A stretch of 64,000 nucleotides of DNA from an uncultured Methanomicrobiales archaeon (lineage in GTDB: Archaea; Halobacteriota; Methanomicrobia; Methanomicrobiales; Methanospirillaceae), in assembly GCA_963758915.1 (NCBI GenBank), contig CAVWXH010000003.1, forward strand, positions 96,001 through 160,000, written 5' to 3'. The notes under the pieces are model-generated. The model saw nothing but the letters and a program-made list of their open reading frames with translations. It made no database searches and was not told the origin of the DNA. Positions 11,866 through 62,732 of the stretch are shown here, in pieces (the first letter of the stretch is position 1; each line of letters opens with the position of its first letter). The translations under genes and the position numbers were made by a program.

Positions 11866-11917
11866 GCTCTGTAAGAAACACACATGAACTTTCTGTTCAG
11901 TTGTGTTTCAACAGAGC
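11866..11917. mobile_element. Short (52 bp) TIR-bounded MITE-like element, copy M1
   Basis: GCTCTGTAAGAAAC...GTTTCAACAGAGC inverted ends; core GAAACACACATGAAC matches the reverse complement of copy M3 (34310-34360). Confidence 0.65.
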
Positions 11918-12001
11918 GTGCAATTGAGCATCTTAGCTCAAAGATGAGCATTAAAATAGGTGGCCTTTCAGATCGTTTTGCCGGAGTTTTTCATACCAGC
12001 C
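11918..12001 (+). repeat. Dispersed ~80-bp hairpin module 'A', copy 1
   Basis: GTGCAATTGAGC-TCTTA-like loop-GCTCAAAGATGAGCAT...GCCGGAGTTTTTCATACCAGC; similar to 25012, 34361 and 62652. Confidence 0.75.
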
Positions 12002-12073
12002 TAATCTTTCAATAGTTTCTGCAAGGCCAGTTATTCAGAAAAATAGATGTAAAGTGTTTCCCGGGGCCGGTAT

Positions 12074-13249
12074 CTACGCAAGCTCATCCCAATCAGACTG
12101 CCTGCGGCGATAGAGAATGATTCCAATTACAACGACAACCGCAATAACTGCAATTATAGCGATATAGATGAGGATGCTCCCAAGTCCGCTGGCCGCACCT
12201 CCAAAAATTCCGCCGATCCCTTTTGATACAGAATCCAGCGGGTTTGCCTCACCAACGTCCTTTCTTAATGCAAGGGCCGCATTATAACTTTGTGTTGCCA
12301 TATCTGAAGACTGTAACGCCTTATCCTTTGCACCTGAAAAATCGTTTTTCGGCAGGAGGTCGTTTGCTTCCGATAACAGGTCTGCTGCCCTGTCGCGCTT
12401 CTGGATGATCGGGGCAAGTCGCGGATCATTTCCCATGCTCCGGTTCACTTTGAAGTAAGTAATGAGGTCATCTGTCTGGTCAATTGGCGTTTGTGCCTCG
12501 TTAATAACCTGCTGTGCCATTGCCCTGTCAAGTGCCTTCTGACCGTCTTTAAGCAGTGCCTGCGCATTATTCATGTAGGTCTGGGCTGCTGCAAATGAGG
12601 TGGATTTCTCGGCATTCTGAATTGCAGCATTTGCAGCAGAATATTTCTCCATCGCTGCTGTTGTTTCAATTCCCTTCTCTGCCTCTTCGTCAATTGATGC
12701 CCGGAATGCAGCGAGTGCGGTTTTTACATCAGATATTGCCTTGGTTTTATCAGCAGGATTTATGACATAACGTTCCCTGACCACTTCACTGGCTGCTATC
12801 GATTCAGACTTGCCACTCAGTTCAGCGACCTTGATAATGGTTTTGTTACCTGATGCCGTCACCTTGGGTACTTCCCCATTCAGGGTAACACGCATAGACA
12901 AGTCCCTTTTTGAAGGATACGAGAGAACCCACCCGTTGATATTTAAATTTCGCCCGTTGGCAGTAACAGCTGGATTCGGATTGCCATCGAGGGAGGTGAT
13001 ATATGACCATTGCCCGTTTTCAAGGTCAGTTGACATCGTGAGAGTCTCCTCACTCGGGAACGTTTCGCCTCCTGTAGGATTAAAATCTATAACAAAAGTT
13101 ACCGTAACAGGATTTGGCGGGGTCTGGCCCGAAACAAGGTCCCCGGTCGGGGTAATTGCAATGTTTTTTACACTTATCGACGCAGATGCAACAGCAATTC
13201 CTGCAATAAGAATTATCAGGACAATAAGGATTGTCTTCAATGTACTCAT
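12074..13249 (-). CDS. Secreted, C-terminally membrane-anchored hypothetical protein (beta domain plus long helical region)
   Basis: N-terminal signal peptide, Ala-rich helical segment, C-terminal TM and short tail RRRQSDWDELA; 12 bp downstream of cetZ. Confidence 0.75.
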   Translation of the reverse strand: MSTLKTILIVLIILIAGIAVASASISVKNIAITPTGDLVSGQTPPNPVTVTFVIDFNPTGGETFPSEETLTMSTDLENGQWSYITSLDGNPNPAVTANGRNLNINGWVLSYPSKRDLSMRVTLNGEVPKVTASGNKTIIKVAELSGKSESIAASEVVRERYVINPADKTKAISDVKTALAAFRASIDEEAEKGIETTAAMEKYSAANAAIQNAEKSTSFAAAQTYMNNAQALLKDGQKALDRAMAQQVINEAQTPIDQTDDLITYFKVNRSMGNDPRLAPIIQKRDRAADLLSEANDLLPKNDFSGAKDKALQSSDMATQSYNAALALRKDVGEANPLDSVSKGIGGIFGGAASGLGSILIYIAIIAVIAVVVVIGIILYRRRQSDWDELA

Positions 13250-13261
13250 ATAATGCGGCCC

Positions 13262-14446
13262 TCACTCAAACAGCGGTTCAATTGACTCCTGCTCGAACAT
13301 TGTTGATTTTTGACCCCTGTCAGGTTTATATACATCATCTTTCGTCTCTTTGGCAATTTCAAGGAGTTCCCTGATGCGTGGTGCGTTCCCAATACTGGCA
13401 AGCACAACCACAACAGCAACATATTCACTGTTTACCGGGTAGTCTCCACCACGGACTTCGACCCCGGCAATGTTCTCTTCCACCCAGCTCTTCGCCTTCT
13501 CGATCCCTTTCCTGTCGAGCTCATTCGGGGGCCCGGCTACGAGGACAAGGGCCCTTTCAGCGGTTGAGAAATCACAGGGAAGCGTAAGCCTGCCGAGCAT
13601 CGCCCGTCTCACAAGCGATATGACCTTCGCTGTCCTGTCCTCACCCAGAAGACCTTCTTCTACATTGTCCTTCCGAATAATTGTGTCTCTGATAGTGGTG
13701 ATAAATGCTCCGACATTATTCTGTTTCTTTTTCGAAGATACACTGCTGATTGCGTACCCGACAGAGGTGATACCCCCGCCCCGCAGTGTATTAATAATCT
13801 CGCTGGAATCGACAACCATCTCACCGACACCAAATTTCCCGGGTTCGCCTGCACGGAAGAGAATCCCGAAACGGCGTACAATTTCATCGTTTAACCGTTG
13901 AAATGCACTTTTAACGCTTTCACCCTCGTTTTTCCAGGCCGAATTATCAAAGAGGAAGGTATTGTCAGCTTCGTTGATGATCGTCTTTAAGCTCCTTGCA
14001 GCATTGTATGAATAGAGCCTCCCTTCTTCGGGGGCCGGCAGGATGCCGAGGACATATACCGGTTCCTGGTAAATTTTTTTCAGCTCTCGCGCAAGAACGG
14101 GGGTGCCGCCCGATCCGGTACCACCACCAAGCCCTGCAACGATCATGAAGGCGTCCACATCATGTGTGCCCACACGGTCGATGGCGCTCATGATACCGTC
14201 AACCTCATCAAGGGTAATCTTCGCGCCTGCGGCATTATCCGTCCCGACACCATGGCCTTTCACGACGGTCTGGCCGATCAGTATACGGTCACGCATGGGG
14301 ATTGTCTTTAACCCCATCAGGTCAGTCCGTGCGGTATTGACAACAATTCCCCTGAAACTTTTCGTGCCGAGCCGGTTGTCCTGGGAGAGGAACATATCCA
14401 CGATCTTTCCTCCCGCCTGTCCAAACCCGATGAAAAATATCTTCAT
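13262..14446 (-). CDS. cetZ: Tubulin/FtsZ family protein CetZ
   Basis: GFGQAGGKIVD, VNTARTDL, GHGVG, GGGTGSGG tubulin signature, MVVDSSEIINTL, GRLTLPC and EVRGGDYP, all CetZ-like. Confidence 0.9.
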   Translation of the reverse strand: MKIFFIGFGQAGGKIVDMFLSQDNRLGTKSFRGIVVNTARTDLMGLKTIPMRDRILIGQTVVKGHGVGTDNAAGAKITLDEVDGIMSAIDRVGTHDVDAFMIVAGLGGGTGSGGTPVLARELKKIYQEPVYVLGILPAPEEGRLYSYNAARSLKTIINEADNTFLFDNSAWKNEGESVKSAFQRLNDEIVRRFGILFRAGEPGKFGVGEMVVDSSEIINTLRGGGITSVGYAISSVSSKKKQNNVGAFITTIRDTIIRKDNVEEGLLGEDRTAKVISLVRRAMLGRLTLPCDFSTAERALVLVAGPPNELDRKGIEKAKSWVEENIAGVEVRGGDYPVNSEYVAVVVVLASIGNAPRIRELLEIAKETKDDVYKPDRGQKSTMFEQESIEPLFE

Positions 14447-14665
14447 GAAATGACTCCCGGCAGCCTGATTATGACTTATATTATCAGTTTTATCTCCTAA
14501 GAACTTATCTGTCCGGAGTTCAAATACTTTCTTATAACCCCGAACTGCCGGGGCCGCTATTTTGTCGATAGTCAGGGGCGGAGCCTTTTTTATCCTGCGT
14601 TTTGTTAATACTATAGGGAGAATGATCAGTCAGGAACCAGCTGTTCCTGGCATATCAGCAATACC

Positions 14666-15895
14666 ATGAAGATCTGTATCATTGGTGGAGGACTGACCGG
14701 CCTTACAGCGGCGTACGCGCTCTCCGGCCGGCACGATATCGATCTTTTTGAAAAGACCTCCACACCAGGCGGCTGCCTCTCCTCGTACCAGGTCGGGAAT
14801 TACTGGATCGAGAAATATTACCACCACTGCTTTTCAGGAGACCGGGCACTTATCTCATTGTTTGGCAAGCTGGGCCTGGCAGACAACCTTGAATGGAGAA
14901 GCGGGACAACAGGATATTATGCCAGCGGGAAGATTTACCCCCTGACGACCCCGTCCGAGATCCTCCGTTACCCGGAGCTGGGCCTGGCAGACAAGGTTCG
15001 GCTTGCATTGCTTACCATGAAGGCAAAAAATATGGATACGCTGCCTCTCGACTCGGTGACCGCAGAAGATTTCATCCTTATGCATGTCGGGAAACGGGTG
15101 TATACTTCATTTTTCGAACCATTGCTCCGCAGCAAGTTTGGGGAACGCCGGTCGGAAGTTTCTGCCGCCTGGCTGATCAGCCGGATCAAAATCAGGTCTG
15201 ACCGGGGCGTCTCCGGTGAACGGCTTGGATACCTGAACGGGGGCTTCCACCTCCTTGTTGATTCGCTTGTGTCTACTATTTCCGCACGGGGAACCCGGGT
15301 TATGTATAACGTACCTGCGACAACGCTGGTAAAAAACGGGGACACCTGGAGTGTTAATGGTACGAAGTACGATGCAGTTATCTCGACAATACCGCCAGGC
15401 CAGCTCCAGCAGATGGGAGGGCCGGATTTGCCGGAAATTCCCTACCAGGGTGCAGCCTGCATGACGATCGGGCTCGACCGTGATGTTGCTGAAAATATTT
15501 ACTGGCTCAATATGAAAGACGATGCCCCATATGGGGCCGTTGTTTCCCATACAAATTTTATCCCTCTGAAACGATACGGGGAACATGTAGTGTACCTCGC
15601 ATCATATTTTTCAGGAACAATCAGGCCTGGCCTGGACAAGGTAATGATCGGGGACTTCTGCAGGAGATTTTCCATTCCGAAAGAGGCAGTCTACTGGCAT
15701 AAACTTGCCGTTGACCCATTTGCCGGACCTGTCTATACAACAGGGTTCCGCCGTTTAATCCCATCATACGGTGAAATGGGGCTTTACATGGCAGGAATGT
15801 TTTCGGCCGCAAATTATCCTGAGCGGAGTATGGAAGGGTCAGTCCAGGCCGGGTTCGGCGTTGCAGGCGTGGTTGACCCCGAGGTCCGGGAATGA
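14666..15895 (+). CDS. FAD-dependent oxidoreductase (amine oxidase/protoporphyrinogen oxidase-like)
   Basis: GGGLTGL Rossmann motif, EKYYHH and YPERSMEGSV; first gene of an overlapping operon. Confidence 0.85.
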   Translation: MKICIIGGGLTGLTAAYALSGRHDIDLFEKTSTPGGCLSSYQVGNYWIEKYYHHCFSGDRALISLFGKLGLADNLEWRSGTTGYYASGKIYPLTTPSEILRYPELGLADKVRLALLTMKAKNMDTLPLDSVTAEDFILMHVGKRVYTSFFEPLLRSKFGERRSEVSAAWLISRIKIRSDRGVSGERLGYLNGGFHLLVDSLVSTISARGTRVMYNVPATTLVKNGDTWSVNGTKYDAVISTIPPGQLQQMGGPDLPEIPYQGAACMTIGLDRDVAENIYWLNMKDDAPYGAVVSHTNFIPLKRYGEHVVYLASYFSGTIRPGLDKVMIGDFCRRFSIPKEAVYWHKLAVDPFAGPVYTTGFRRLIPSYGEMGLYMAGMFSAANYPERSMEGSVQAGFGVAGVVDPEVRE

Positions 15896-16608
15896 CTGCC
15901 CCTGCCATTGCTGCCGTGATACCGGTATATAATGACCGGAAGGCACTGGAAAGTGCAATCCCGGTTTCCCTTCAATACCTTGGAGAGATTACACCGGATT
16001 TTGAACTGATCATCGCCGAGGATGGCAGCACGGACGGTAGTGCAGAGCTGGTAATGGAAGCCGGCAGCAGGGACCCACGGGTCCGCCTCCTTCATAGTGA
16101 TGAGCGTCTTGGACGGGGGAGAGCATTGAACCGTGCGTTTCGTGAGACTTCTGCACCGATTGTCCTTTATTATGATGTAGACCTGGCCACCAGTATGGAG
16201 CACCTGCGTGAACTGGTAAGTTCAATACAGGAGGGTTATGATATCGCAACAGGGTCAAGACTACTCCCGGACAGCCGGATCAGGCGGACAGGCGGGAGGG
16301 AATTTGCCAGCAGGGGATATAATTTCCTGGTCAGAACAATCCTTTGGAGCAGGATTCACGACCACCAGTGCGGGTTCAAGTCATTCCGCCGTGAACGGGT
16401 TCTTCTGCTAGCAGAAAATGTCAGGGAACGTCACTGGTTCTGGGATACCGAGATCCTGGTCAGGGCCCAGCAGAAAGGCTACCGGATAAAAGAGTTCCCG
16501 GTGCACTGGGAGCAGGGGCCTGGCACAACGGTCCGCAAAAGTGATGTGACAGGTATGGGACTCTCGGTAGTGCGGTTGTGGTGGCGGCTCCATGTTCAGA
16601 AAAATTAG
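15892..16608 (+). CDS. GT2 dolichyl-phosphate glycosyltransferase
   Basis: VIPVYN, EDGSTDGS, YYDVDL, GSR, DHQCGFK and WFWDTEIL. Confidence 0.9.
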   Translation: MTAPAIAAVIPVYNDRKALESAIPVSLQYLGEITPDFELIIAEDGSTDGSAELVMEAGSRDPRVRLLHSDERLGRGRALNRAFRETSAPIVLYYDVDLATSMEHLRELVSSIQEGYDIATGSRLLPDSRIRRTGGREFASRGYNFLVRTILWSRIHDHQCGFKSFRRERVLLLAENVRERHWFWDTEILVRAQQKGYRIKEFPVHWEQGPGTTVRKSDVTGMGLSVVRLWWRLHVQKN

Positions 16609-17569
16609 TGCGATTGTTATTCCCACGCTTATTGCCGCCGGGATTATTATCTACATGCTACTTTCGGTATGGGATGAGTTGCTGGTGGCTCTCCGGCACG
16701 TGGTTCCGCTTTACATTGTTCCGGCAGTGCTCGTCTGCCTGCTGGCATGGATATTACGTGGTGCCCGGTACATGGGCATCCTCAGGAGCCTGCAGGTGAA
16801 GGCAGGGATGCTTGTTTCCACGGCCTGCATATTTGTTTCCCAGACTGCAAACCTCGTGGTCCCGGCCCGGCTCGGTGACCTTGTCAGGATTTTCATCCTG
16901 AAGCATGAGTATGACACATCAGTATCTACGGGAATCTCTTCCCTCGTAGTAGAGAGGCTTTTTGATATCATCATGGTCGCACTCCTTGGGGTTCTCATGC
17001 TCCCCTTTGTCCTGAATGTGCCACAATGGTTTTACATTGTAATTGTAGCCCCGCTCATTATCGGGGCAGTATTCATGGTCGTCCTGGTCGCCCTGGGAAG
17101 GGTTAAATCAGAAAATAAATATATCCGGCTTGTCCTGAACATGCTGGAGGAGGTACGGAAAGCCTCGCTCAGTGCAAGGTCACTCCTCCAGTTCTCCATA
17201 TTATCGGTCGTTATCTGGCTCCTGGATATTGGCGTATGTATTTTTGTGGCGTACATGTTTGGACAGAACATCGGGTTGCCGGTTGTAATACTTGCGATTG
17301 TCATCGGTAACCTCGTGAAAGCCGTTCCGCTGACACCTGGTGGTGTAGGTACCTATGAACTTGCCGTGGCTCTTGTCCTGCAACTGTCGGGAGTGGAGCC
17401 GGCCCTGGCATTCCTCATTGCCGTTACAGATCACCTGATTAAGAACCTGGTCACAATAATCGGCGGGGTTATTTCAATCTATTATCTTGGAGACTGGGTA
17501 CTCTCAACAATCAAATCTGCTTTCAACAAGGAACTTGGAGAAGGGGTGGATGGAAATTCCAGGCGCTGA
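16592..17569 (+). CDS. UPF0104 / lysylphosphatidylglycerol-synthase-TM (flippase-like) membrane protein
   Basis: ANLVVPARLGDLVR, ERLFD and PLTPGGVGTYE motifs. Confidence 0.85.
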   Translation: MFRKISAIVIPTLIAAGIIIYMLLSVWDELLVALRHVVPLYIVPAVLVCLLAWILRGARYMGILRSLQVKAGMLVSTACIFVSQTANLVVPARLGDLVRIFILKHEYDTSVSTGISSLVVERLFDIIMVALLGVLMLPFVLNVPQWFYIVIVAPLIIGAVFMVVLVALGRVKSENKYIRLVLNMLEEVRKASLSARSLLQFSILSVVIWLLDIGVCIFVAYMFGQNIGLPVVILAIVIGNLVKAVPLTPGGVGTYELAVALVLQLSGVEPALAFLIAVTDHLIKNLVTIIGGVISIYYLGDWVLSTIKSAFNKELGEGVDGNSRR

Positions 17570-19691
17570 TATACAGGTCCTGTCGGTAATCTCGTGGCTG
17601 CTCATCCTCACCGTACTCCAGCTCTCACTCTGGCCGTACCTGAAAAAAGCGATCGGGGACCTTGCTTTTCCCGTGGCATTCCCTGCATCCGTTTTACTAT
17701 TCACCTTTATTTCATGGTATTGCGGACTGGTTCAGATCCCTGTATATCTCACAATGGTCCCGTTTATCATCCTGCTTCTCGTTGCCCTGTATCGCGGGGA
17801 GTATTCCTTGAACGGACTTAAAGGGGAGTGTAAATGGGAGTTCCTGTTCCTGGTCTGTTTCCTGTTCATGCTTAATGTAAGGTTTGTGAACCCTTCGATC
17901 TCCTTTGCCGAGAAATTCATGGACCATGGGTTCATCGCCTCGGTTATGCGTGACCCGGTTGTGCCGCCACTTGATCCGTGGTTCTCCGGCGGGTACATGA
18001 ATGTTTATTATTACCTCGGTTACTGGGCGATCGGGGCCCTTGGGGTTGTAAGCGGGGCACCATCGAATATCGTGTTCAACCTTGCACTCCCGACCGTCTT
18101 CGCACTCTCCGCAGTCACCATGTATGCCCTCGGCCACCTGCTCCTTGAACGATTCAGGTGGCTCCCGCTCGCGACGTTCCTTATTGTCAACCCCTCCTTT
18201 GTATTCGAGGCCGTCCGGGGAACCGCCGCCGGATCGCTCTTCTGGAACAGTACCAGGACGATTCCGGACGCGATCAATGAGTTCCCGCTTTTTTCACTCC
18301 TCTGGGGTGATGTCCACCCCCACCTCATCGGCATGTTCAACCAGGTTTTTTTCATATTCCTCCTGGTATTTTCATTGAAGCGGTGGGGGAGTCTAACCTG
18401 CCAGGGACGCTGGTGTGTAATCGGATTGGCCGCCCTTTCACTCGGTGCCATGCCACTGATCAATACCTGGGACATCCTCCTGTATGCACCGTTCATGGTT
18501 GTTATCGGGGCGTTGATCTGGTACGTGACGATTCACCCGGGAGGTATCAGTGTCACCAATGGAATAGCAGGGGTTGTGGGAAAACTGTCCTTCTGGTTCC
18601 ATTCTACGCTGAAGTGCATAGTGGATGCAATCAGGGAATGCATTGCACAGCTCATAAAATCCCCTGGGCAGATTGCTGACAACCCCTGGGGATTCCTCTT
18701 CATCGTCCCGCCCCTCTCCGTGCTGTTATGGATCCCGTTCTACTTCCAGCTGAACACGCAGGGTATCCAGGGAATCGGATTTGTGGTATCCCCCACGGGT
18801 CTGCCAGAGTTCCTGCTGGTCCACGGTATTTTTCTCCTGATATTTATCGCCTACCTGTGGAGAGATATCATAAAGCGGCCCTGGCTCATCCTTTTTGTCC
18901 TTCCATTTGCTCTTGCCGGTTATCTTTCCGCAGCGGTCGCGCTTGTCCCACTCGTCTACCTTGTCGCACGCTGGAGACCAGAACCCGTGGAAATCCTCGC
19001 AATCGCAGGGCTCGTAATCATCATCTTCTGCGAATTTTTCTACCTTAAGGACAACATGGGGGACGTTTATTACCGTATGAATACCGTGTTCAAGTTCTAT
19101 TTTGCAGCCTGGCTCCTGCTCGGGGCATCGGGGTTTGCGATGGTTGGAATAATGCTTGCCAGGTGGGTCCGGCCATACACTATCCCCCTGCATGCCCGGT
19201 ATATCCTGGCCTTTGTTCTGGGGGTCGGATTTATCCTCCTGCCGCTGGTCATACCAGCCACCATGATCGAAGGCCCGAGGTCCCTTGACGGTCTTGCCTA
19301 CATTGATTCCAGCCATCCGGGTGATGCAGCGGCTGTGGCATGGCTTCGTTCCCTGCCGGGCAATATAACCATTGTAGAGGCTGAAAATGGCGATTATACC
19401 TACTATTCACGGATCTCTTCTTTTACCGGAATACCGACTATTATAGGCTGGCCATTCCACGAGTTTATGTGGCGCGGTGACACGTCGGGATGGTATGGTA
19501 CCCGGATGAATGATGTCAGATCGATCTATGAAAACCCGGAAGATACAGTGACACTGATGAAGAAATATAATGCCACGTTGCTATATGTCGGTGATTCAGA
19601 ACGGGCACGGTATCATGTTGACCTTGATTCCGCGGATATCGTCCCGGTATATGACCGGGATGGTGTGAAGATCTACACACCCCGTTCGTAA
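17550..19691 (+). CDS. DUF2298 (Chlor_Arch_YYY) GT-C-like membrane protein
   Basis: AEKFMD, PPLDPWFSGG..NVYYYLG, INEFPLFS..GDVHPH, RMNTVFKFY and SSFTGIPTIIGW. Confidence 0.85.
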   Translation: MEIPGADIQVLSVISWLLILTVLQLSLWPYLKKAIGDLAFPVAFPASVLLFTFISWYCGLVQIPVYLTMVPFIILLLVALYRGEYSLNGLKGECKWEFLFLVCFLFMLNVRFVNPSISFAEKFMDHGFIASVMRDPVVPPLDPWFSGGYMNVYYYLGYWAIGALGVVSGAPSNIVFNLALPTVFALSAVTMYALGHLLLERFRWLPLATFLIVNPSFVFEAVRGTAAGSLFWNSTRTIPDAINEFPLFSLLWGDVHPHLIGMFNQVFFIFLLVFSLKRWGSLTCQGRWCVIGLAALSLGAMPLINTWDILLYAPFMVVIGALIWYVTIHPGGISVTNGIAGVVGKLSFWFHSTLKCIVDAIRECIAQLIKSPGQIADNPWGFLFIVPPLSVLLWIPFYFQLNTQGIQGIGFVVSPTGLPEFLLVHGIFLLIFIAYLWRDIIKRPWLILFVLPFALAGYLSAAVALVPLVYLVARWRPEPVEILAIAGLVIIIFCEFFYLKDNMGDVYYRMNTVFKFYFAAWLLLGASGFAMVGIMLARWVRPYTIPLHARYILAFVLGVGFILLPLVIPATMIEGPRSLDGLAYIDSSHPGDAAAVAWLRSLPGNITIVEAENGDYTYYSRISSFTGIPTIIGWPFHEFMWRGDTSGWYGTRMNDVRSIYENPEDTVTLMKKYNATLLYVGDSERARYHVDLDSADIVPVYDRDGVKIYTPRS

Positions 19692-19834
19692 ATTCCCGGG
19701 CATGCTGATGAATCTTGGGGAGGAGGGAAAATGTGCAGGTCCCACGGAAAAGGAAAGCGCTGGCCCGGTGAAAATAAGTGCCCGGGCCCATGATAACAAA
19801 CCTTTATTGCCACTCCTGTTAAAATAATATGGCT

Positions 19835-19891
19835 ACATCGTCGCTGACTGATGAGTGATGAGGGAGACGCTACTCCTGAATGAGGTGAGTT
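19835..19891 (+). promoter_or_regulatory. rpl7ae 5' leader with kink-turn motif(s) (likely L7Ae autoregulation)
   Basis: CTGACTGATGAGTGATGA-GGGAG-acgcta-CTCCTGA-ATGAGGTGAG: box C/D-like UGAUGA/CUGA with tandem GA pairs next to the SD. Confidence 0.7.
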
Positions 19892-20260: not shown

Positions 20261-20267
20261 GGATATT

Positions 20268-20477
20268 ATGGCAGACGAAGGAACACCCGCGGAGGTGATC
20301 GAGGTGATCGGCTCAACCGGAATGCATGGCGAGGCGATGCAGGTAAAATGCCGGATCCTCGACGGGATCAACAAGGGTCGTATTATTACCCGCAATACAG
20401 TGGGTCCAATCCGTGAAGGCGATGTGCTGATACTCCTCGAGACCGAGCGCGAAGCAAAGAAACTATCGAGGCGGTGA
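20268..20477 (+). CDS. rps28e: 30S ribosomal protein S28e
   Basis: [36 protein letters not shown]. Confidence 0.97.
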
Positions 20478-20483
20478 GCAGAA

Positions 20484-20675: not shown

Positions 20676-20681
20676 GCTGGT

Positions 20682-21131: not shown

Positions 21132-21144
21132 CTGGGCGGGACCC

Positions 21145-24753: not shown

Positions 24754-25011
24754 ACTCTGTTGACATCCTGCATGATGAGAGAAAAAGCGGAAGCGTAGAA
24801 ATCTTGGGGTCCCCCCTTCTCTGTTACACCCCCGTAAAGGTATCCTTTGGGCAGGGTTCACCACAAGGGTTTCTGAATAAATCAGACATTACAAATAACG
24901 GTCCCTCACCCTACCGGTGTCGCCAAAGCGGCGGGGCGAAGCCCCGGAGGCGTAATTGAATTTCAGAATAAACCAAATCAAAATCAACATATTTAAAGAT
25001 GGCAACAGAGC
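24754..25011 (-). mobile_element. Long (258 bp) TIR-bounded MITE-like element, copy M2
   Basis: ACTCTGTTGA...CAACAGAGC ends; interior is the reverse complement of the interiors of 60542-60798 and 62397-62651 (GGGGC-loop-GCCCCGCCGC, AACCCTGCCC.AAG.ATA). Confidence 0.7.
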
Positions 25012-25088
25012 GTGCAATTAGCCCCTCGGCTCATAAATGAGCATGAAACGGATGGCCTTTTTGATTGTTACCGGAGTTTTTCCCAACC
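25012..25088 (+). repeat. Dispersed module 'A', copy 2
   Basis: GTGCAATTAGCCCCTCGGCTCATAAATGAGCATGAAA...CCGGAGTTTTTC. Confidence 0.7.
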
Positions 25089-34138: not shown

Positions 34139-34276
34139 ATGGAAAATTATAAGGAGACGCAGCTCCGGGAGACCCGGGATGATAATATTAGAGATGAGAC
34201 CTTTGATGAGTTTTTACTCCGTGCGTACAACCAGCTGACACCTGAAGAGCAGATAAAGATCAGGCAGAAACATTAG
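34139..34276 (+). CDS. Possible 45-aa small protein
   Basis: Own translation MENYKETQLRETRDDNIRDETFDEFLLRAYNQLTPEEQIKIRQKH*; G-rich stretch before the ATG and TTATAA about 40 bp upstream. Confidence 0.4.
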   Translation: MENYKETQLRETRDDNIRDETFDEFLLRAYNQLTPEEQIKIRQKH

Positions 34277-34309
34277 AGACCCCACTTTTTCACCCCTTTG
34301 GATAGTATG

Positions 34310-34360
34310 ACTCTGTTGAAATATCTTTGGGCGGGACGTTCATGTGTGTTTCAACAAAGC
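34310..34360. mobile_element. Short (51 bp) TIR-bounded MITE-like element, copy M3
   Basis: ACTCTGTTGAAA...TTTCAACAAAGC; inverted relative to M1. Confidence 0.65.
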
Positions 34361-34440
34361 GTGCTATGAGCCTTTGGCTCATAGATGACCATGAAAAAGT
34401 GGTTTTCCAGAATGGTCTGCCGGGAGTTTTTCATATCAGC
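34361..34440 (+). repeat. Dispersed module 'A', copy 3
   Basis: GTGCT-ATGAGCC-TTT-GGCTCAT-AGATGACCATGAAAAA...GGAGTTTTTCATATCAGC. Confidence 0.75.
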
Positions 34441-34700
34441 TGATATTTTCAATTGTTCCAGCCAGATTGCAGGGTATCGTATTTGTTGCCACCAGGTGAT
34501 TTTGGCGTCTGCAACGCTCACCGGAGAATTGATCCTTGGCAGGACATGACATTTCAGAAAAATCACACCATATTTTTGAAATTATTCAGGAACATACAAC
34601 ATCATCGTGGTTTAACCATGTCAGGACACCGTCAGGGGTATATGGTGCAGGACTCATATGCAAAAAAGGAGTTATATAACGTGCAGGAGAAGGTTGTAGG

Positions 34701-35834
34701 ATGAAAAAGGATCTGCTCATGTGGGATGAGACTCTCTTCCGGGACCCTGAGGTCTTTGAGATTGATTATGTGCCAGAGCAGTTTAGTTACCGTGATGACC
34801 AGATTACTGAACTCGCATTCCAGATCAGGCCGGCACTCCGTGGGGGCCGGCCACTTAATACCGTCTGCCGCGGGCTCCCTGGGACGGGTAAAACGACCTG
34901 CGTAAAAAAACTCTTCGAAGAGATTACAACCACAACAAAAAAAGTCCTGCCGGTCTATATCAACTGCCAGATAGATAATACAAAATTTGCAATTTTTTCA
35001 CAGATCTACCGGAAACTTACCGGTCACCTGCCACCGCCTTCCGGGACATCCTTCAAGACAATTTTTGATGCAATTGCCCGGATGATAATGAAGGACGAAA
35101 TTGTCCTTCTAATCTGCCTTGACGATGCAAACTACCTCCTGTATGAAAACGAGATTAATAACGTCCTTTACCCGTTACTCCGTTCATACGAGTCCTTCGA
35201 GGGGACACGGATCGGGGTAATCCTGATCCTGTCCGATATGGCCGTCGACCTCTCACGGTCCATAGATGCCCGTGTGTCTTCCGTGCTCTGTCCGACTGAC
35301 ATCTATTTTCCACCATATTCCGAAGAAGAAGTCCGGACCATCATCGGCGAGAGGGTACTGCAGGGGTTCTACCCGGGCGCCATCAGTGCCGAGATGGTGG
35401 ACCTCGTTGTAACCCAGACACTGAAAGGCGGGGACCTGCGGGTCGGGATAGACCTCCTGAAGCGTGCCGCACTCAGCGCCGAGCGGAAAGCGAAGCGTAC
35501 AATAGAACGCGAGGATATATGCGGGGCCTACCTGATGTCCCAGTACCTCCACCTCTCATTTTCACTCAAATCCCTGAAGGCAGAGGAGCGGGAGATCATA
35601 AAGAAACTTGCAGAACTTGCAAAAGACAAAAAAGACATGGGCGCAGGGGAGGTTTATAAAACAATAAGGGAGTCAACCGAGATCAGCTATACCAGGTTCT
35701 ACGAAATGGTGAAAAAGTTTGACCTGATGAGGCTGATTGACTTAGAGTATCGCAGCGGCACCGGGGAGAAGGGGAGGACACGCGTGATCAGTCTCCGCTA
35801 TGACCCGGTAAAAGTCATCGAATACCTCGTCTGA
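34701..35834 (+). CDS. cdc6: Orc1/Cdc6 replication initiator family protein
   Basis: DYVPE..YRD.Q, GLPGTGKTT, YINCQ, LDD Walker B, FPPYS, GDLRVGIDLL and C-terminal wHTH. Confidence 0.93.
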   Translation: MKKDLLMWDETLFRDPEVFEIDYVPEQFSYRDDQITELAFQIRPALRGGRPLNTVCRGLPGTGKTTCVKKLFEEITTTTKKVLPVYINCQIDNTKFAIFSQIYRKLTGHLPPPSGTSFKTIFDAIARMIMKDEIVLLICLDDANYLLYENEINNVLYPLLRSYESFEGTRIGVILILSDMAVDLSRSIDARVSSVLCPTDIYFPPYSEEEVRTIIGERVLQGFYPGAISAEMVDLVVTQTLKGGDLRVGIDLLKRAALSAERKAKRTIEREDICGAYLMSQYLHLSFSLKSLKAEEREIIKKLAELAKDKKDMGAGEVYKTIRESTEISYTRFYEMVKKFDLMRLIDLEYRSGTGEKGRTRVISLRYDPVKVIEYLV

Positions 35835-37694: not shown

Positions 37695-37768
37695 GGGCCC
37701 GTGGTCTAGTCGGTTATGACGTCGCCCTTACACGGCGGAGGTCGCCGGTTCGAATCCGGCCGAGCCCA
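37695..37768 (+). tRNA. tRNA-Val(TAC), intronless, CCA not encoded
   Basis: GGGCCCG TGGTCTAGTCGGTTATGAC, anticodon arm TCGCC-CTTACAC-GGCGG, T arm GCCGG-TTCGAAT-CCGGC, CGAGCCCA. Confidence 0.95.
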
Positions 37769-54642: not shown

Positions 54643-54724
54643 ATCCCCGGCATCCGGACGGGTCGGGGTATTGTCAGCCCCGATATTCCGAACAGCAGTG
54701 TTTTCCGATCCGGGACGCACAGTT

Positions 54725-55615: not shown

Positions 55616-55699
55616 GGGGATTATTATCCCATGAATTTTTGTATTGAAATTATACCCTTTTTTTGCAGGCTGACCGTTGGGAATTGGAACGGGGCCGGT

Positions 55700-56768: not shown

Positions 56769-56953
56769 AGTTCACCCTTGTCCCTGGAATGGGGAGTTAC
56801 TGCACCTGATGTTTTTAAACTGATTTTTCAGGACTCATAAGCATTTGGAAGTGTCACGCTATTGTTGCTGTACCAGACGGTCCGGAAAAAGAAACCAGCA
56901 CCATTTTAAAAAACACGGGCCAAGAATTTATATAAATAATTCGGGTAACCGGT

Positions 56954-57880
56954 GTGAATGTACTAATTCTCGGGGCAGGGGCAGTGGGTCTTGGAATCGC
57001 TGCAAAACTATCAGAAGTAGTCGGGGTAACAGCATTAACCAGGGAGGGGCCTGCAGGGACCATTGCAGAACATGGCCTTACACTTGAAGGGGCATGGGGT
57101 AACGGAACATACAGGTTCCCCTGCAGCAGCAAGCCGCCGGCTGGCGTGCATTTTGATTATATCCTGATCACCACGAAGGCCTATAGTACACAGGAGTTGT
57201 GCAGGTGTTATGCGGGATTGCTCCGGAATTCCGAAGTGGTCAGTCTGCAGAACGGCCTCGGGTCCGAGGAAATAATCTCGGGTTTCACGGAAAGCGTGAT
57301 TGGGAGCGTCGTTATGACGGGTTTCATACGCCGGGATGAGCACTGTGTGCATGTTACTGCAAACGCCGGAGAGACCATTTTTGGAAGATTCCCCGTTGGA
57401 ATGGACAAATCAGTTCAACAACTGGTAGAAATTTTTTCAGAGGCGGGTATCCCTGCGAGGGGAGTCGTTGATATTAAAAGCAATTTGTGGTCTAAAAACC
57501 TTATCAGTTGCACGTTAAACCCGATTAGTGCGGTCCTGGGAGTCAGGTATGGTATGCTTACCCGGGATCCGGGCTGGCAGATCATCGAAGGCATTACACG
57601 CGAGGTTTTCCTGGTTGCTGGTGCAGAAGGAGTGCCCCTCCTGTGGGAAAACCCGGAGGACTACCTGGCGTACCTGAAAAATGAACTCATCCCGGTTATG
57701 TCCACCCATACCTCTTCGATGCTGCAGGATATCACATTCAGGAGAAGGACAGAGGTCGGTTTCATGAACGGGGCCATCAGCAGGTTTGGAGAAAAACACG
57801 GGATAGCAACCCCTTACAACGAATGCCTGACGAACCTTGTGCATTTCAGGGAGCAGGAACACATGGAACCCGGGGTTTGA
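56954..57880 (+). CDS. panE: 2-dehydropantoate 2-reductase (ketopantoate reductase)
   Basis: GAGAVG, TTKAY, LQNGLG, W.K, SSMLQD...RRTEV..MNG. Confidence 0.88.
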   Translation: MNVLILGAGAVGLGIAAKLSEVVGVTALTREGPAGTIAEHGLTLEGAWGNGTYRFPCSSKPPAGVHFDYILITTKAYSTQELCRCYAGLLRNSEVVSLQNGLGSEEIISGFTESVIGSVVMTGFIRRDEHCVHVTANAGETIFGRFPVGMDKSVQQLVEIFSEAGIPARGVVDIKSNLWSKNLISCTLNPISAVLGVRYGMLTRDPGWQIIEGITREVFLVAGAEGVPLLWENPEDYLAYLKNELIPVMSTHTSSMLQDITFRRRTEVGFMNGAISRFGEKHGIATPYNECLTNLVHFREQEHMEPGV

Positions 57881-57889
57881 AGCGGCCTG

Positions 57890-58927
57890 CTATTTTAAAA
57901 ATTTTAATACCGTCGCAGCCCACGTGAATCCGATAGCACTTCCCGCGAGCACCACGAGATTCCCCGGCAGCACCCGCCTTTCTTCACGTGCCATGGCGAG
58001 AGCAAACAGGGTATCCACAGAACCCATATGTCCGTACTCTTTCATCGTTATCATAGTCCGGACCGGGTCAAGGCTGAGACCTGCCATGATATTTGCTGTC
58101 AGGCTCCGTTTGACCTGGTTCATGAACAGGTGATCAATATCACGGGAAGAATACCCGCTTTTTCTCAGTGCTTCGTTGATGATATACAGGTAATTTTTCA
58201 GGTAGATACGGGAAAAGATCTGGTCGAGACCTGCCGGGTCATCCACACATAAAAAATAGTCATTTTCATGAAGTGGAGGTTCTGACGGGGGGTTCTTCGT
58301 CCCTCCGTGGGGGATTTTTACATGATCAACGAGCGTTCCATCTGTAATACCGGCATACGCGAGGAACCGGTTACTTTCATTGTTTTTACGAAGGACCGCT
58401 GCCGCTGCCCCGTCTGCAAATGAGAAACCGGATAGAGAACCTGGGTCCCGGTAATTGATTGTCATGGAGAGCTTCTCGCTACATACCACAAGGGCATACT
58501 CTTTCTCAGGATCGCCAAGCAGGAGCTCTTTTGCGGTATGCAACCCAAGGTTTCCGCCATTGCAACCGTTCCTGATCTCAAACGCGTATGCATTTTTTGC
58601 ACCTGTTTTGTCCTGTATTTTTGCAGCAGGCGACCAGAACCGGTAATCATAGTAGCCGAGACCGCAATATGCCACAAGGTCAAGCTCCCGTGGATCTATC
58701 CCTGCATCTTCAATCGCATTATTTGCTGCATGAACCCCCATTTCTGCAGGATGAAGGCCAGGGCCGGCGATATGTTTCCTCTCGATCCCTATCTTCTCCA
58801 GAAACACGGATTCGGGGATCCCGGAACGCCTGGACATCTCCTTGCTCGTAAGGATGCCGTCGGGAATGAAATATCCCATTCCTGAAATACCGACAGTATC
58901 CCGGTAGGAAGGCCCTTGTACAGACAT
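57890..58927 (-). CDS. FabH/KAS III-like thiolase-fold condensing enzyme
   Basis: KIGIERK, catalytic NGCNGG, FADGAAA, YGHMGS and GFTW. Confidence 0.85.
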   Translation of the reverse strand: MSVQGPSYRDTVGISGMGYFIPDGILTSKEMSRRSGIPESVFLEKIGIERKHIAGPGLHPAEMGVHAANNAIEDAGIDPRELDLVAYCGLGYYDYRFWSPAAKIQDKTGAKNAYAFEIRNGCNGGNLGLHTAKELLLGDPEKEYALVVCSEKLSMTINYRDPGSLSGFSFADGAAAAVLRKNNESNRFLAYAGITDGTLVDHVKIPHGGTKNPPSEPPLHENDYFLCVDDPAGLDQIFSRIYLKNYLYIINEALRKSGYSSRDIDHLFMNQVKRSLTANIMAGLSLDPVRTMITMKEYGHMGSVDTLFALAMAREERRVLPGNLVVLAGSAIGFTWAATVLKFLK

Positions 58928-59114
58928 GTATCACCAGTTCCGGTACAACCCATGTTGTTTTCCGGTGTTAGTATGAATATTCCCGGGATGCGTCATAAAA
59001 ACAGCGGGTTCACTCCATTTCCGGCCTTTAAATTGTCCGATCCATGTTTTTCCCCGACAACTTTATGACCTGCGGGTTTTTCTACCGGTCTCTTCAGATC
59101 GGGGAATTTTTATC

Positions 59115-60515
59115 ATGAACAATAGATCTGTGTTCATGGAAATCAACATCCTCCAAAGTCTGATCACGCTCTTCCAGATGATATGCGTGATCATCGTTTT
59201 TGCATACCTTTTCACCAGGAGCAGGTATTTTCTTGAAGTCCTCGAACACCATCCCCGGCTCTCAACCCAGCTCCTCCTTATTGTTGTATTCGGGGCCCTG
59301 TCAGTGTACGGGACCATTAGCGGGGTTGTATTATACGGTGCAGTGCTCAATGTCCGTGACCTCGGACCTATTATTGCAGGGCTTACCTGTGGGCCCGTTG
59401 TAGGGGTTGGAGCAGGGCTTATCGGGGGTATATACCGGATGGCGCAGGGCGGGCCCTACATGTACACGGGATTCGTTGCCCCGGTCCTTGCAGGGCTTCT
59501 CAGCGGGATAGTCTATGTCGTGAATAAAAAGGAGCTGATTTCCAGTAAATATGCCGTTATTTTTACCATCCTCGTTGAATCGTTAATATCCCTCATAGCG
59601 ATCGTTGTCGCTACCCCGGCATCACAGGTCGTAATGATCATCACCGTCGTGGCAATACCGATGATTGCCATTAATGCGCTTGGAGTGTTCATTTTCACGA
59701 CCATCATCCACAACCTGCTGAACGAGCGGAAGACCCGCCGGGAGAAGGAAAAGCTTGAACACGAGATCGCAAGAAAGAACGCAGAACTTGAAATTGCCGC
59801 GGACATACAGCGCAGTTTTCTCCCTGAAACAATTCCCCAGATCAAAGGGTTTGATATTGCTGCGACCAGTCTTCCTGCAAAAGAGGTGGGGGGTGACTTT
59901 TTTGATGTCGTCCCCCTTGAAGTGATCCCGCTTTCCGAAAGTCGTATGGGCATACTGATTGCGGATGTTTCCGGGAAAGGGGTCCCTGCAGCCCTGTTCA
60001 TGGCTCTTTCCCGGGTTATTGTGCGGGTATCGTCCACCTGGTTTAAAATTCCATCAGAAATAATTGCCCATGCCAATGTAATTATTTCAGCTGATGCCAA
60101 GACAGGGATGTTTGTCACCCTTTTTTACGGGGTCCTCGATGAAAAAGAGAGGAAACTGACCTATGTCAATGCCGGTCATAACCCACCGATAATTTTTCGT
60201 GGGAACAGCGGAAAGACAGAGGAGCTTGAATCAACGGGTGTCGCTATAGGTATCATGGATGATGCGGCGTATTCACAGGCTGAAGTCGGACTCTCACCGG
60301 GGGATATCGTCCTTCTTTACACGGACGGTGTAACAGAGGCAATCAACGAGAATGAGGAGATGTTTGAAGTTGAACGCCTCATGGACACAATTACAGGTGC
60401 ACCTTCTGGTCAGGCAAGTGAGATTATGGAGAATGTTATCAGGGCAGTCTTTGCATTCAGCGGAAAGACACCCCAGTATGATGATATCACCCTGATGGTT
60501 GTCAAGGTGCTCTGA
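59115..60515 (+). CDS. 5TM-5TMR_LYT membrane sensor fused to SpoIIE/PP2C phosphatase
   Basis: LNVRDLGPIIAGL..GPVVG.GAGLIGG.YR (LytS-type); EVGGDFFD, DVSGKG.PAAL, NAGHNPP, YTDGVTEA and DDITL. Confidence 0.9.
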   Translation: MNNRSVFMEINILQSLITLFQMICVIIVFAYLFTRSRYFLEVLEHHPRLSTQLLLIVVFGALSVYGTISGVVLYGAVLNVRDLGPIIAGLTCGPVVGVGAGLIGGIYRMAQGGPYMYTGFVAPVLAGLLSGIVYVVNKKELISSKYAVIFTILVESLISLIAIVVATPASQVVMIITVVAIPMIAINALGVFIFTTIIHNLLNERKTRREKEKLEHEIARKNAELEIAADIQRSFLPETIPQIKGFDIAATSLPAKEVGGDFFDVVPLEVIPLSESRMGILIADVSGKGVPAALFMALSRVIVRVSSTWFKIPSEIIAHANVIISADAKTGMFVTLFYGVLDEKERKLTYVNAGHNPPIIFRGNSGKTEELESTGVAIGIMDDAAYSQAEVGLSPGDIVLLYTDGVTEAINENEEMFEVERLMDTITGAPSGQASEIMENVIRAVFAFSGKTPQYDDITLMVVKVL

Positions 60516-60541
60516 TTAGCCTGTAAAAAGACTATTTTTTT

Positions 60542-60798
60542 GCTCTGTTGAAAAGCTATAATAGGCACCCAGAATCCTGATTTTTCTGAAATTTATCTAC
60601 GCTCTCGGGGCTCACGCCCCGCCGCTCTGGAGACCCCGGTTGAGATAGAGACTATCCCCCAATACTCTGAAATTAATGAGCCTTCGGGAAACCCTGCCCG
60701 AAGAATATCTTAATGGGGGTGGGGCAGGGAGGGGGTGAAACCCCCTCCTGTCAAGGTAGCACCACTTGCTATAACACAATGCAGGATAACAGCAGAGC
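60542..60798 (+). mobile_element. Long (257 bp) TIR-bounded MITE-like element, copy M4 (degenerate right end, no module A)
   Basis: GCTCTGTTGAAA left end; interior closely similar to 62455-62605; right end AACAGCAGAGC. Confidence 0.7.
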
Positions 60799-60944
60799 CA
60801 TTTTTCCGGCAAATAGGGGCAGGGAGGGGCCCTTATAGTGTATTCCCCGATCCGCAGTCCTTTGTTCAGGCGGCATTTTTAATGGTAGCACCGGTGAGAC
60901 TGGCAGCTTTCACAGGCCCGTTCATTATCATTGAACTCCGGAAT

Positions 60945-61787
60945 TTACCCGGCGAGTTCCCTGACTTTTGCGATATTTCCCGCATCATCCCGCCGGGCAT
61001 CAACAGGGGTCTCGCAGACAAGGGGGAGACGGGAAAATGGTTCGTGCCTGAGTATTCTCCTGAACCCTGCTTCGCCGATGCTTCCCATCCCGATATGCTC
61101 GTGCCGGTCAAGACCGCTGCCAAGCTCTCCCTTCGAATCGTTACAGTGGATCACCCGGATTTCTCCAAGCCCGATTACCTCGTCAAATCTTCCGGTTGTC
61201 CCTTCAATCGCATCATCGGTGCGGAGGTCATAACCAGCCCCGAAAGCATGGCATGTGTCAAAGCAGACCCCGGTACGGCGGCGGTCCACAACACCATCCA
61301 GCACAGCTCTGATGTCTTCGAAGGTATTACCCACCCCGTTCTTTTCACCTGCCGTATTCTCAAGGAGCAGCATCACGTCATTGGGAACTTCACCAAGAGC
61401 CTGGTTAATTGCGCTGATGACATTCTTCCTGCCTTCTTCTATGGTCATTCCAGGGTGATGGCCAAGGTGGGTGACCAGGTATGGGATCCCCAGCTGCCCA
61501 CAACGCCTGAGTTCAGCGGTAAGCGTAGCAATGGATTTTTCGTAGTGTTCCGGGTTTGGCCCGGCAAGGTTGGGGAGATAGGGCATATGGTCGACAGGTG
61601 GAAATATTGAAGTTTTCTTCAGAGCGTCCCGAAAGGCCTTTATATCTTCTTCTGCGAGGTCTTTCCACGCCCATCCCCTCGGGTTCCTCGAAAAGATCTG
61701 GAATGTGTCAGAGGAGACCACCTCCGCCCGCTCTACGGCTTTTGCAATCGACCCTGCGATTGATACATGTACACCAACCTTCACCAT
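60945..61787 (-). CDS. nfo: Endonuclease IV
   Basis: GVHVS, HMPYL.NL, H.G, LENTAG, DTCH, HCNDSK, DRHEHIG and ETP. Confidence 0.95.
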   Translation of the reverse strand: MVKVGVHVSIAGSIAKAVERAEVVSSDTFQIFSRNPRGWAWKDLAEEDIKAFRDALKKTSIFPPVDHMPYLPNLAGPNPEHYEKSIATLTAELRRCGQLGIPYLVTHLGHHPGMTIEEGRKNVISAINQALGEVPNDVMLLLENTAGEKNGVGNTFEDIRAVLDGVVDRRRTGVCFDTCHAFGAGYDLRTDDAIEGTTGRFDEVIGLGEIRVIHCNDSKGELGSGLDRHEHIGMGSIGEAGFRRILRHEPFSRLPLVCETPVDARRDDAGNIAKVRELAG

Positions 61788-61821
61788 GTTGCGACTCTCC
61801 TCAATGTGCCGGTATATTTTG

Positions 61822-62355
61822 TTACCGGTTTTCTGTTACCTTTGCTGCATTCTTTTTTTCAAATAATACTGGCAGGCTCTTTGCCCACTCCTTGATCATG
61901 TCCCAGTCCCGGAAATCCCCTGCGGGTGCTTTCATGAGGGATATCATGGTTTTCGTCATAAACGAATGTTGTGCGGGGTCCAGTTTCCCGGCAAACACCT
62001 TCGCCGCCACCAGGTTTGCGGGTCCGACCATGCCGCGGAGTTGTTCTTCAAGGGCTGCAGACGACCCGATTTTCGGGTTTACCGGCGCCAGTCCCACCGC
62101 AAATGCTGCAACGGGAATTGTTTTCAACCCGTTTTTATTCCTTTCGACAAATTTCCGGAGATGATCATCGATATGCCCCGTATATACCGGAGCCCCCATA
62201 ACCACCGCATTATAACCTTCAGGCGCGGATACGTCCTTGAAATGGGAGACCCTGACCTGGTGCCCCCCTGCTTCCAGTTCTTTCCCGATGGCCGATGCAA
62301 TTTCCTCTGTTGATCCCTTCCTTGATGCATAGGCAACCAGTATCTGCATAGACAA
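61822..62355 (-). CDS. Flavodoxin-domain protein (HemG-like)
   Basis: VAYASRKGSTEEIA, GAPVY, FAGKL and DFRDW. Confidence 0.85.
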   Translation of the reverse strand: MSMQILVAYASRKGSTEEIASAIGKELEAGGHQVRVSHFKDVSAPEGYNAVVMGAPVYTGHIDDHLRKFVERNKNGLKTIPVAAFAVGLAPVNPKIGSSAALEEQLRGMVGPANLVAAKVFAGKLDPAQHSFMTKTMISLMKAPAGDFRDWDMIKEWAKSLPVLFEKKNAAKVTENR

Positions 62356-62396
62356 TGTTGTACTCCCGCGGAAAATTAAAAGGTGTCCATATTTGC

Positions 62397-62651
62397 GCTC
62401 TGTAGAAATTCTCTCAAATCTATCTTGTAGATTGGTAATTCCAAAATTTCGTCACGCTTCCGGGGCTCATGCCCCGCCGCTCTGGCGACCCTCGGTTGGG
62501 ATAGAGACTACCCCCCATTACTCTGAATTTAATGAGCCTTCTGGAAACCCTGCCCGAAGAATATCTTAATCGGGGGCAGGGAGGGAATGAACCCCCTCCT
62601 GTCTTCGTATTTCCCTCTTATTTTTTACACACCGAAGGGTTTCAACAAAGC
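62397..62651 (+). mobile_element. Long (255 bp) TIR-bounded MITE-like element, copy M5
   Basis: GCTCTGTAGAAA...TTTCAACAAAGC ends; internal hairpins GGGGC-TCAT-GCCCC and CAGGGAGGG...CCCTCCTG. Confidence 0.72.
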
Positions 62652-62732
62652 GTGCCATGAGCCTCTGGCTCATAGATGGGCATGAAAAAATTGGCATTTC
62701 AGATTGTTTTGCCGGAGTTTTTCATACAAGCC
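62652..62732 (+). repeat. Dispersed module 'A', copy 4
   Basis: GTGCC-ATGAGCC-TCT-GGCTCAT-AGATGGGCATGAAAAAA...GCCGGAGTTTTTCATACAAGC. Confidence 0.75.

Follow-up and report, generated by a model that had tools for sequence, protein, structure and literature searches.

An 80-bp module in the terminal-repeat tips of IS5-type miniature transposons of a methanogenic archaeon is probably a gene-less derivative of an IS110-family element

We analysed a two-part intergenic repeat system in a 64,000-nucleotide stretch of archaeal DNA (hereafter the window; G000:C3:96001-160000, where G000 is its own Methanoregula-like assembly of 2.38 Mb in 18 contigs, 94% complete), in which a short hairpin module, called A, stands beside transposon-like cassettes. 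It is very likely that A is an 80-83-bp gene-less deletion derivative, consisting of the left and right ends of a 1.55-kb IS110-family insertion sequence (IS), that it was inserted precisely in the repeat tip of IS5-type elements and that it is mobilized in trans by an RNA-guided process, of which we infer the RNA-guided step from sequence. The variable cassettes are miniature transposable elements with inverted repeats (MITEs) and other miniature derivatives of an IS5-family IS. The two-part repeat would then be explained as one transposon parasitizing another, and RNA-guided IS110 recombination would be placed in methanogenic archaea.

An earlier note on this DNA had located A at four positions in the window, each starting right after ...CAACA(G/A)AGC, and all four were confirmed:

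A1, 11918..12000, + strand: probable IS110-derived mini-element, running from its left to its right end (71.1 bits, nhmmer); the split repeat's last C is at 12001, and the ends match the full-length IS.
A2, 25012..25088 (3' end approximate), + strand: probable IS110-derived mini-element with a degenerate right end (TTTTTCCCAACC).
A3, 34361..34440, + strand: probable IS110-derived mini-element.
A4, 62652..62731, + strand: probable IS110-derived mini-element (78.4 bits, nhmmer); after the split repeat's C (62732) comes the 8-bp target duplication CTTATTTG.

A profile built from these four copies, whose alignment has a mean column identity of 79%, identified 52 copies of 80-83 bp across G000 (nhmmer, E<1e-4). 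One copy occurs with identical flanks on two contigs (C12:22541-22616 and C13:4221-4295), which is probably assembly redundancy, so the 52 copies may be 51. An intact 5' end is present in 50 copies, and 42 of these directly adjoin an upstream 12-mer at most two mismatches from TTTCWACARAGC; at this threshold the 12-mer occurs 809 times in G000, from which about 0.01 adjoining copies are expected by chance. In the sister species G006, 49 of 60 copies stand behind the repeat. The genome-wide search that the earlier note had proposed thus reveals co-occurrence beyond chance, and the association is one-sided: A is almost never found without the repeat, though most repeats lack A, with 38 of the 220 repeat ends found in G000 at no more than one mismatch (about 31 in a shuffled sequence) carrying it. 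AGC precedes A, and of the 50 G000 copies with the 3' end present, 43 also have AGC as their own 3' terminus; AGC (GCT on the other strand) flanks A on both sides. Four copies identical over 75 nt adjoin gamma ends (a second module, described below), beta ends and unclassified repeat ends, and the presence of one variant on different cassette ends indicates that A itself switches partners.

Comparison of orthologous sites supports the same picture. The nearly complete sequence of G006, a syntenic genome of the same genus with ~92% nucleotide identity, was compared with G000, and junctions read by eye show the same repeat adjoining the same flank with or without A, with exact boundaries. For example, G000 reads ...caacgtttg|GCTTTGTAAAA where G006 reads ...caacgtttg|ACTGATATGAAAAA...CATTGCAT|GCTTTGTGAAA. 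An automated comparison covered the copies with a mappable flank (36 in G000 and 51 in G006; a further 14 and 19, respectively, lacked one). Among the 36 G000 copies, 12 are common to G006, 6 face an A-less repeat at the same flank and 18 fall in neither group; the corresponding numbers for the 51 G006 copies are 15, 13 and 23, and visual inspection added a few more in which the repeat is degenerate. In three instances the A-less repeat has an unusual terminal base, which the A-bearing site shows at the outer end of A. Because AGC stands on both sides of A and this terminal base reappears beyond it, A is positioned inside the repeat tip, between ...AGC and the terminal C. The junction described in the earlier note therefore stands as to its exact start after ...AGC, but A does not lie outside the repeat as had been thought.

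Presence and absence were also seen at the window loci themselves. A 260-nt contig from metagenome run X1, derived from a related strain (~93% identical), is collinear with window positions 34225-34358 and 34440-34546 with one letter between them, and so lacks exactly the 80 nt of A3 while keeping the adjacent miniature cassette, M3. At locus 1 of the genome comparison, the related genome G010 has the MITE without A. The G006 site corresponding to the cassette M5 plus A4 is empty, with one copy of the 8-bp target. A2 is present in X1 and X2 contigs and has an orthologous copy in G006 (C8:267801, A-score 43/80). The comparison with related genomes suggested at the outset has thus yielded both exact A-less orthologous ends and an empty site. 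A rare solo copy, with no repeat ahead of it, lies at G000 C7:107362-107436; G006 keeps a 52-bp mini-cassette there (C6:287790-287935), which was lost (or gained) precisely, leaving A.

The evidence for the origin of A comes from full-length elements with the same ends. The IS110 DEDD transposase domain (PF01548) has one match in G006 and two in G010, and the G006 element (L229) starts exactly after a MITE repeat with a sequence matching A model positions 2-59 (nhmmer E 1.7e-10). Intact copies from a metagenome scan are 1551-1556 bp long. All 13 full-length loci from the sister genome and metagenomes start right after [TAG]TT[CT][AT]ACAGAGC with GYGCTATGAGCC-loop-GGCTCATAGATGAGTATGAAAAA, in 11 distinct upstream contexts that include both ends of an IS5 element. 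All eight right ends seen read TTTTTCATACCAGC (longer form ...ATGTTTTTCATACCAGC), followed by C in seven. One locus, L261, carries a 441-aa open reading frame (ORF; L261:527-1849) that matches PF01548 (96 bits), PF02371 (86 bits) and NF033542, 'IS110 family RNA-guided transposase' (287 bits). Against L261, 35 of the first 38 nt of A match the left end (counted by eye) and the last 15 nt are identical to the right end. The layout of A is accordingly a ~38-nt left end (the P1 hairpin plus ATGAGYATGAAAAA), a ~27-nt middle and a ~16-nt right end (GTTTTTCATACCAGC).

The parent has a left end of ~235-250 nt up to the conserved protein start and a right end of ~72 nt. This long left and short right end resembles the IS110 subgroup, and the right end is not longer than the left as in the IS1111 subgroup. 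Both A and the full-length element insert in a sequence- and orientation-specific manner with a short shared core and without a long target duplication: they integrate in one orientation between ...ACAGAGC and the terminal C, with no target duplication beyond the shared AGC. The autonomous element sought by the earlier note thus turns out to be an IS110-family element at the same junction in every one of the 13 loci. Of the two readings offered there, the first, in which A is a second non-autonomous element that inserts at the terminal inverted repeats, is borne out by the presence of both ends of an IS110 element at the same junction, by exact alleles with and without A and by the occurrence of A on different cassettes.

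More distant relatives within the order keep this end architecture at other targets. L236 has the hairpin followed by ATGCAATAGATGAAAAC ... TTTTCATATCAGAC, L235 ends in ...TTTTTCATACTAGC and the G028/G074 group ends in ...CATTTTCATACGAAAG. A 73%-identical IS110 relative (L271:1140-1245) lies directly behind a short palindromic element with a GCTGGTATGAAAAC start and a GTTTTCATACCAGC end; the IS adjoins a right-end-like sequence, not the guide-predicted CAACACAGC, and may represent recombination into another element's end. We ruled out that the apparent right-end/left-end junction in L271 is a circle or tandem, as the upstream DNA is a different short palindromic element with a right-end-like terminus.

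An improbable alternative, although the one that survives best, is that A serves as an alternative outer end of composite MITEs, with the IS5 transposase taking A's distal end as a mimic of the repeat and moving cassette and A as a unit; A would then have spread in such composites and not by itself. Many copies show 8-bp duplications around whole composites (GGAAAAAC, CGAAAATC, GAATGAAC and GAAATAGG, as well as TAAATAAC around an IS5+A copy), some G006 sites opposite whole composites are empty (locus 4; M5+A4), and A's distal end resembles the repeat (TTTC-ATAC-CAGCC versus TTTC-TACAGAGCC). These duplications led us to take composite transposition as the main model initially, but it was dropped once orthologous sites placed A inside the tip: since a MITE+A composite would be flanked by duplications even if only the MITE had made them, the duplications do not discriminate. 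Moreover, orthologous MITEs differ by A alone, identical A copies sit on different cassettes, and full-length IS110 elements with the same ends occupy the same site. Composite movement by the IS5 transposase may nevertheless occur in addition to IS110-type movement of A.

A-like modules behind the same repeat were found in 5 of 12 other searched genomes of the genus and also in other genera and families of the order, with hairpin and ends kept and centres varying; the number of A copies per genome is 52-72. In G021 the hairpin shows double compensatory changes (CCATGATCC/GGATCATGG). Across 113 unique copies from G000 and G006, 86% of P1 cells pair and 13 are compensatory, compared to a shuffle mean of 5.9 and maximum of 12, as counted on the nhmmer alignment. 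Such conservation across genera, together with T5 runs on both strands of A and the intergenic position of all window copies, 33-260 bp from genes, would suit an A that is mainly a host-selected RNA or DNA signal on MITEs (a bidirectional archaeal terminator or a small RNA) and owes its position to selection and not to targeted insertion. We consider this very unlikely, because the exact junction, the orientation rule, the alleles with and without A and the IS110 identity of both ends would be left unexplained; a host-signal role may exist as a secondary effect. Least credible of all is an IS200/IS605-type palindrome-associated transposable element moved in single-stranded form by a Y1 (HUH) transposase and inserted 3' of AGAGC: two hairpins in A, the conserved P1 pairing, insertion 3' of a fixed short sequence without target duplication and a right end (CCAGC) resembling the target AGAGC speak for it, but the Y1 transposase PF01797 is found in none of three genomes (G000, G006 and G010), a 5-nt target cannot account for the near-exclusive repeat-tip residence and the autonomous partner that was found is IS110-type. 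A TnpB/Cas12f zinc ribbon (PF07282) was rejected as a link, being one marginal, single-copy conserved match per genome unrelated to the repeats.

The cassettes that carry A have an IS5-type parent of ~1.0 kb with the repeat GGCTCTGTWGAAA and an 8-bp target duplication. In G000 they comprise MITEs of ~260 and ~350 bp and minis of 50 bp, with repeats GGCTYTGTWGAAA and 8-bp target duplications. The only long-frame DDE_Tnp_1 transposase in G000 (C6:46547-47053, 285 aa; NF033579, IS5 family, 203 bits; PF01609) lies outside the window within a 1010-bp element bearing the cassette repeats, and this single autonomous IS5 copy has A outboard of its left repeat. Its ORF (in the region G000 C6:46018-47110, equal to L001:972-2064) gives 285 aa from a TTG, with an in-frame stop just upstream, while homologues have 300-310 aa; the N-terminus may be damaged. 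Relatives of the transposase are widespread in Methanoregula, Methanoregulaceae and Methanolobus, and the Methanoregula and Methanolobus loci in which both repeats could be placed contain a ~1.0-kb element with the same repeat (GGCTCTGTAGAAA), with 8-bp duplications visible in several. From the spread of these relatives, the source of the window is taken to be a Methanoregula-like methanogen. None of the 80 related IS5 loci of other genomes carries A, which is therefore not part of the canonical IS5 element. The 1-kb IS thus combines a DDE_Tnp_1 transposase, terminal inverted repeats and a fixed-length duplication, as expected for the IS5 family; ISL3 was ruled out, as PF01610 is absent. Five cassettes lie in the window (no strand assigned):

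M1, 11866..11917: 52-bp miniature IS5-type element, two repeat tips around a palindrome from the gamma right-end hairpin.
M2, 24754..25011: 258-bp IS5-type MITE, inverted relative to M5.
M3, 34310..34360: 51-bp miniature IS5-type element, repeat tip plus gamma right-end remnant plus repeat tip.
M4, 60542..60812: IS5-type MITE in M5 orientation, with a degenerate right repeat and no A match.
M5, 62397..62651: 255-bp IS5-type MITE.

Cassette size and orientation vary as the earlier note had described, with M2 and M5 mutually inverted (76% identity over 71 nt on opposite strands) and M1 and M3 sharing an exact 15-mer (GAAACACACATGAAC) in opposite orientations, which follows from both being built from repeat tips and the gamma hairpin. 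M4 is 88% identical to M5 in the same orientation, and its lack of A (no nhmmer match) and the unrelated left flanks were likewise as described. M1+A1 is embedded in a decayed, older MITE of ~260 bp (window 11800-11865 and 12002-12060), which G010 keeps at the orthologous position; the insertion found there in G006 is a different one, of 670 bp.

Module gamma appears, from its sequence, to be a second IS110-derived lineage with the same behaviour as A, located at TTTC within the repeat. It is an 89-nt module inside the IS5-type repeat that forms the end of many MITEs, with 53 matches in G000, of which 28 are at least 80 nt long (for example, C9:87690-87780). Among these 28, TTTC precedes gamma in 23 and follows it in 25. 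Over its positions 16-89, gamma shares 83% identity with the right-end side of a second IS110 element (L230; 447-aa ORF with PF01548 and PF02371), and in G010 this element sits at TTTC inside the same IS5-type repeat. The window holds gamma remnants at 11866-11917 and 34310-34360. Another type of module, CCATGAAAACRGRCATGATGMC...GGGATTTTCATATTAA, is found repeatedly between gamma ends and MITE cores (G000 C5:21100-21320 and C13:3980-4220) and makes up the left end of the L230 element (L230:100-230); such modules appear mutually nested.

How A could be moved is suggested by the left end of its parent. IS110 elements excise scarlessly to a circle and encode, in their left end, a bridge RNA with one loop that binds the target and one that binds the donor (Durrant et al. 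2024, PMC11208160). According to that paper, left guides are equal to the top strand, since they pair with the bottom one, and in IS621 the target guides comprise 9 nt on the left and 4 nt on the right, both including the core. The left end of A's parent (~240 nt) folds with z = -4.25 (L229) and -4.58 (L261), and in the consensus of 11 left ends the P1 hairpin is accompanied by a long stem around two internal-loop stem-loops; 7 of 54 pairs show compensatory changes. In the first loop, UUACAGAGC on the 3' side shares an exact 8-mer with the repeat tip, and GGCU on the 5' side is the complement of AGCC; in the second loop, AUACCAG equals the right end CATACCAGC. The candidate guide segments vary along with the target, of which there are three classes, and with the right end, of which there are two:

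A-type parents, UUACAGAGC or UAACAGAGC: would read the repeat tip C[TA]ACAGAGC.
L272, GAACACAGC: would read the left flank CAACACAGC.
L236, UGAAAAAGUC: would read the left flank TAAAAAGTC.
A-type parents, AUACCAG: would read the right end CATACCAGC.
L236, AUAUCAG: would read the right end CATATCAGAC.

The candidate segments of A's parent appear to match the left-guide rule and the 9/4-nt IS621 layout as given in the available text. In the mechanism we propose, the parent left end would give rise to a bridge-RNA-like transcript whose first loop reads the repeat tip and whose second loop reads the element's right end. This RNA and the recombinase (the DEDD/serine 'RNA-guided transposase') would be supplied in trans, recognize the joined ends of A (the CATACCAGC|GTGCTATG junction) as donor and the repeat tip (TTTCTACAGAGCC) as target, and insert A or excise it scarlessly. 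Either tip of every IS5-type element would be a target, so that A could come to lie beside any cassette type at either end, the autonomous IS5 copy included. Because such a target (a left target of 9 nt plus C) lies wholly inside the repeat tip, every IS5-type end in either orientation would be a site, which would account for the varying orientation of the cassettes. The second reading of the earlier note, in which A would be a landing pad with cassettes inserting or inverting next to it, is accordingly not supported, since A can enter either identical repeat tip of any IS5-type element. A broader proposal, to which we give a little less than an even chance, is that A is a natural minimal donor (two half-sites and a hairpin) moved in trans at 50-70 sites per genome and that, together with gamma (core in TTTC), it forms a layer of RNA-guided 'hyperparasites' that split IS5-type cleavage tips in methanogens and may disable or re-tool transposon ends.

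Several observations weigh against this interpretation of A. No transposase or recombinase lies near the window loci, so any enzyme would act in trans, as the earlier note had recognized; the IS5 gene lies elsewhere in G000, but no IS110 recombinase gene (PF01548, 0 matches) or internal IS110 DNA is present in this 94% complete assembly. The single IS110 copy of G006 is frameshifted, and A may be inactive in G000 or its helper unassembled. Nothing in the parent clearly corresponds to the ~27-nt middle of A, and an 80-bp double-stranded circle would be physically demanding as an intermediate. As G000, G006 and G010 are nearly equidistant, gain and loss of A are not polarized. On the RNA side, the left-end covariation comes from few, closely related sequences, guide matches taken one at a time are weak (by shuffling, p = 0.03 for the 8-mer and p = 0.23 for the 7-mer), the right-donor guide is not assignable to a segment, and no Rfam family matches the IS110 left ends (E<=1).

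This kind of system is already known; the combination of an archaeal host, an 80-bp high-copy derivative, residence in MITE tips and two lineages did not turn up in the literature searched. The earlier note had drawn an analogy with the IS1111 group, which holds in that an IS110-family element targets a terminal inverted repeat, but the end lengths point to the IS110 subgroup. IS4321 and IS5075, members of the IS1111 subgroup, reportedly target the 38-bp terminal repeats of Tn21-family transposons. Like A, they belong to the IS110 family and occupy a single position, in a single orientation, within the terminal inverted repeat of a transposon to which they are unrelated. In contrast, they are full-length and bacterial, with a long right end and subterminal inverted repeats, whereas in A's parent it is the left end that is long and the right end that is short, and the abundant form of A is a miniature on MITEs. 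PMC11208160 describes the IS1111 subgroup as having a right end that exceeds the left in length and holds the bridge RNA, along with subterminal inverted repeats of 7-17 bp.

With the IS621-type IS110 elements of the same paper, again as far as its available text goes, A's parent shares a DEDD and Transposase_20 recombinase, a long left end predicted to fold with two internal loops, a candidate left guide equal to the top strand of the left target, and a short donor/target core; A and its parent also share site- and orientation-specific insertion into repeated sequences and scarless presence/absence. They differ in being archaeal (Methanoregulaceae), in having the core within AGC and not CT, in being known here from sequence, and in that A targets the terminal-repeat tip of a different transposon, most copies are gene-less and 80 bp long, and there is no Rfam match.

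Two bacterial cases come close. MITEPpu9 of Pseudomonas putida, a MITE-like element associated with the IS110-family ISPpu9 and reported to form minicircles (PMC12288879, available part), is non-autonomous like A, consists of the left and right ends of an IS110-family IS and is thought to use the transposase in trans. It carries the small RNA gene ssr9, is present in 8 copies and targets sequences of the repetitive extragenic palindromic (REP) type, whereas A is 80-83 bp long without evident cargo, numbers 52-72 copies per genome and targets IS5-type repeats. In Coxiella burnetii, IS1111 inserts into the REP of QMITE2, and strains have these MITEs with or without the IS (PMC5896051, available part). 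As with A, an IS110-family element lands in a MITE and the insertion varies between strains or genomes, but there a full-length inserter targets a palindrome within the MITE, while A, mostly a miniature inserter, uses the repeat tip. The literature searched, which covered articles without their supplementary files and PMC13343696 in its available part, contained no archaeal 80-bp derivative at 50-70 copies per genome in MITE cleavage tips with two parallel lineages. Its only MITE-like IS110 derivative was MITEPpu9 in Pseudomonas, and it held nothing on Methanoregula MITEs or archaeal miniature IS110 elements.

If mobilization in trans is correct, A would define the minimal donor DNA for a bridge recombinase in nature, and the three target classes would provide natural triplets of guide, target and donor that are usable for tests of programmability. 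As A splits the last base off the IS5-type repeat, it may regulate a MITE family that forms a visible fraction of intergenic DNA. In annotation, A, gamma and the IS5 MITEs call for separate masking, each as its own family.

All five window loci are intergenic, with neighbouring genes for a mannosyltransferase-like protein, a thiamine pyrophosphate (TPP) enzyme, Orc1/Cdc6, a SpoIIE-type phosphatase, a flavodoxin and an SPFH protein. The sole Rfam match in the window is a tRNA gene (37695-37768, +). The Orc1/Cdc6-type AAA+ gene (window 34701-35831, +) starts 260 bp downstream of M3+A3, and this repeat cluster may lie beside a replication origin region.

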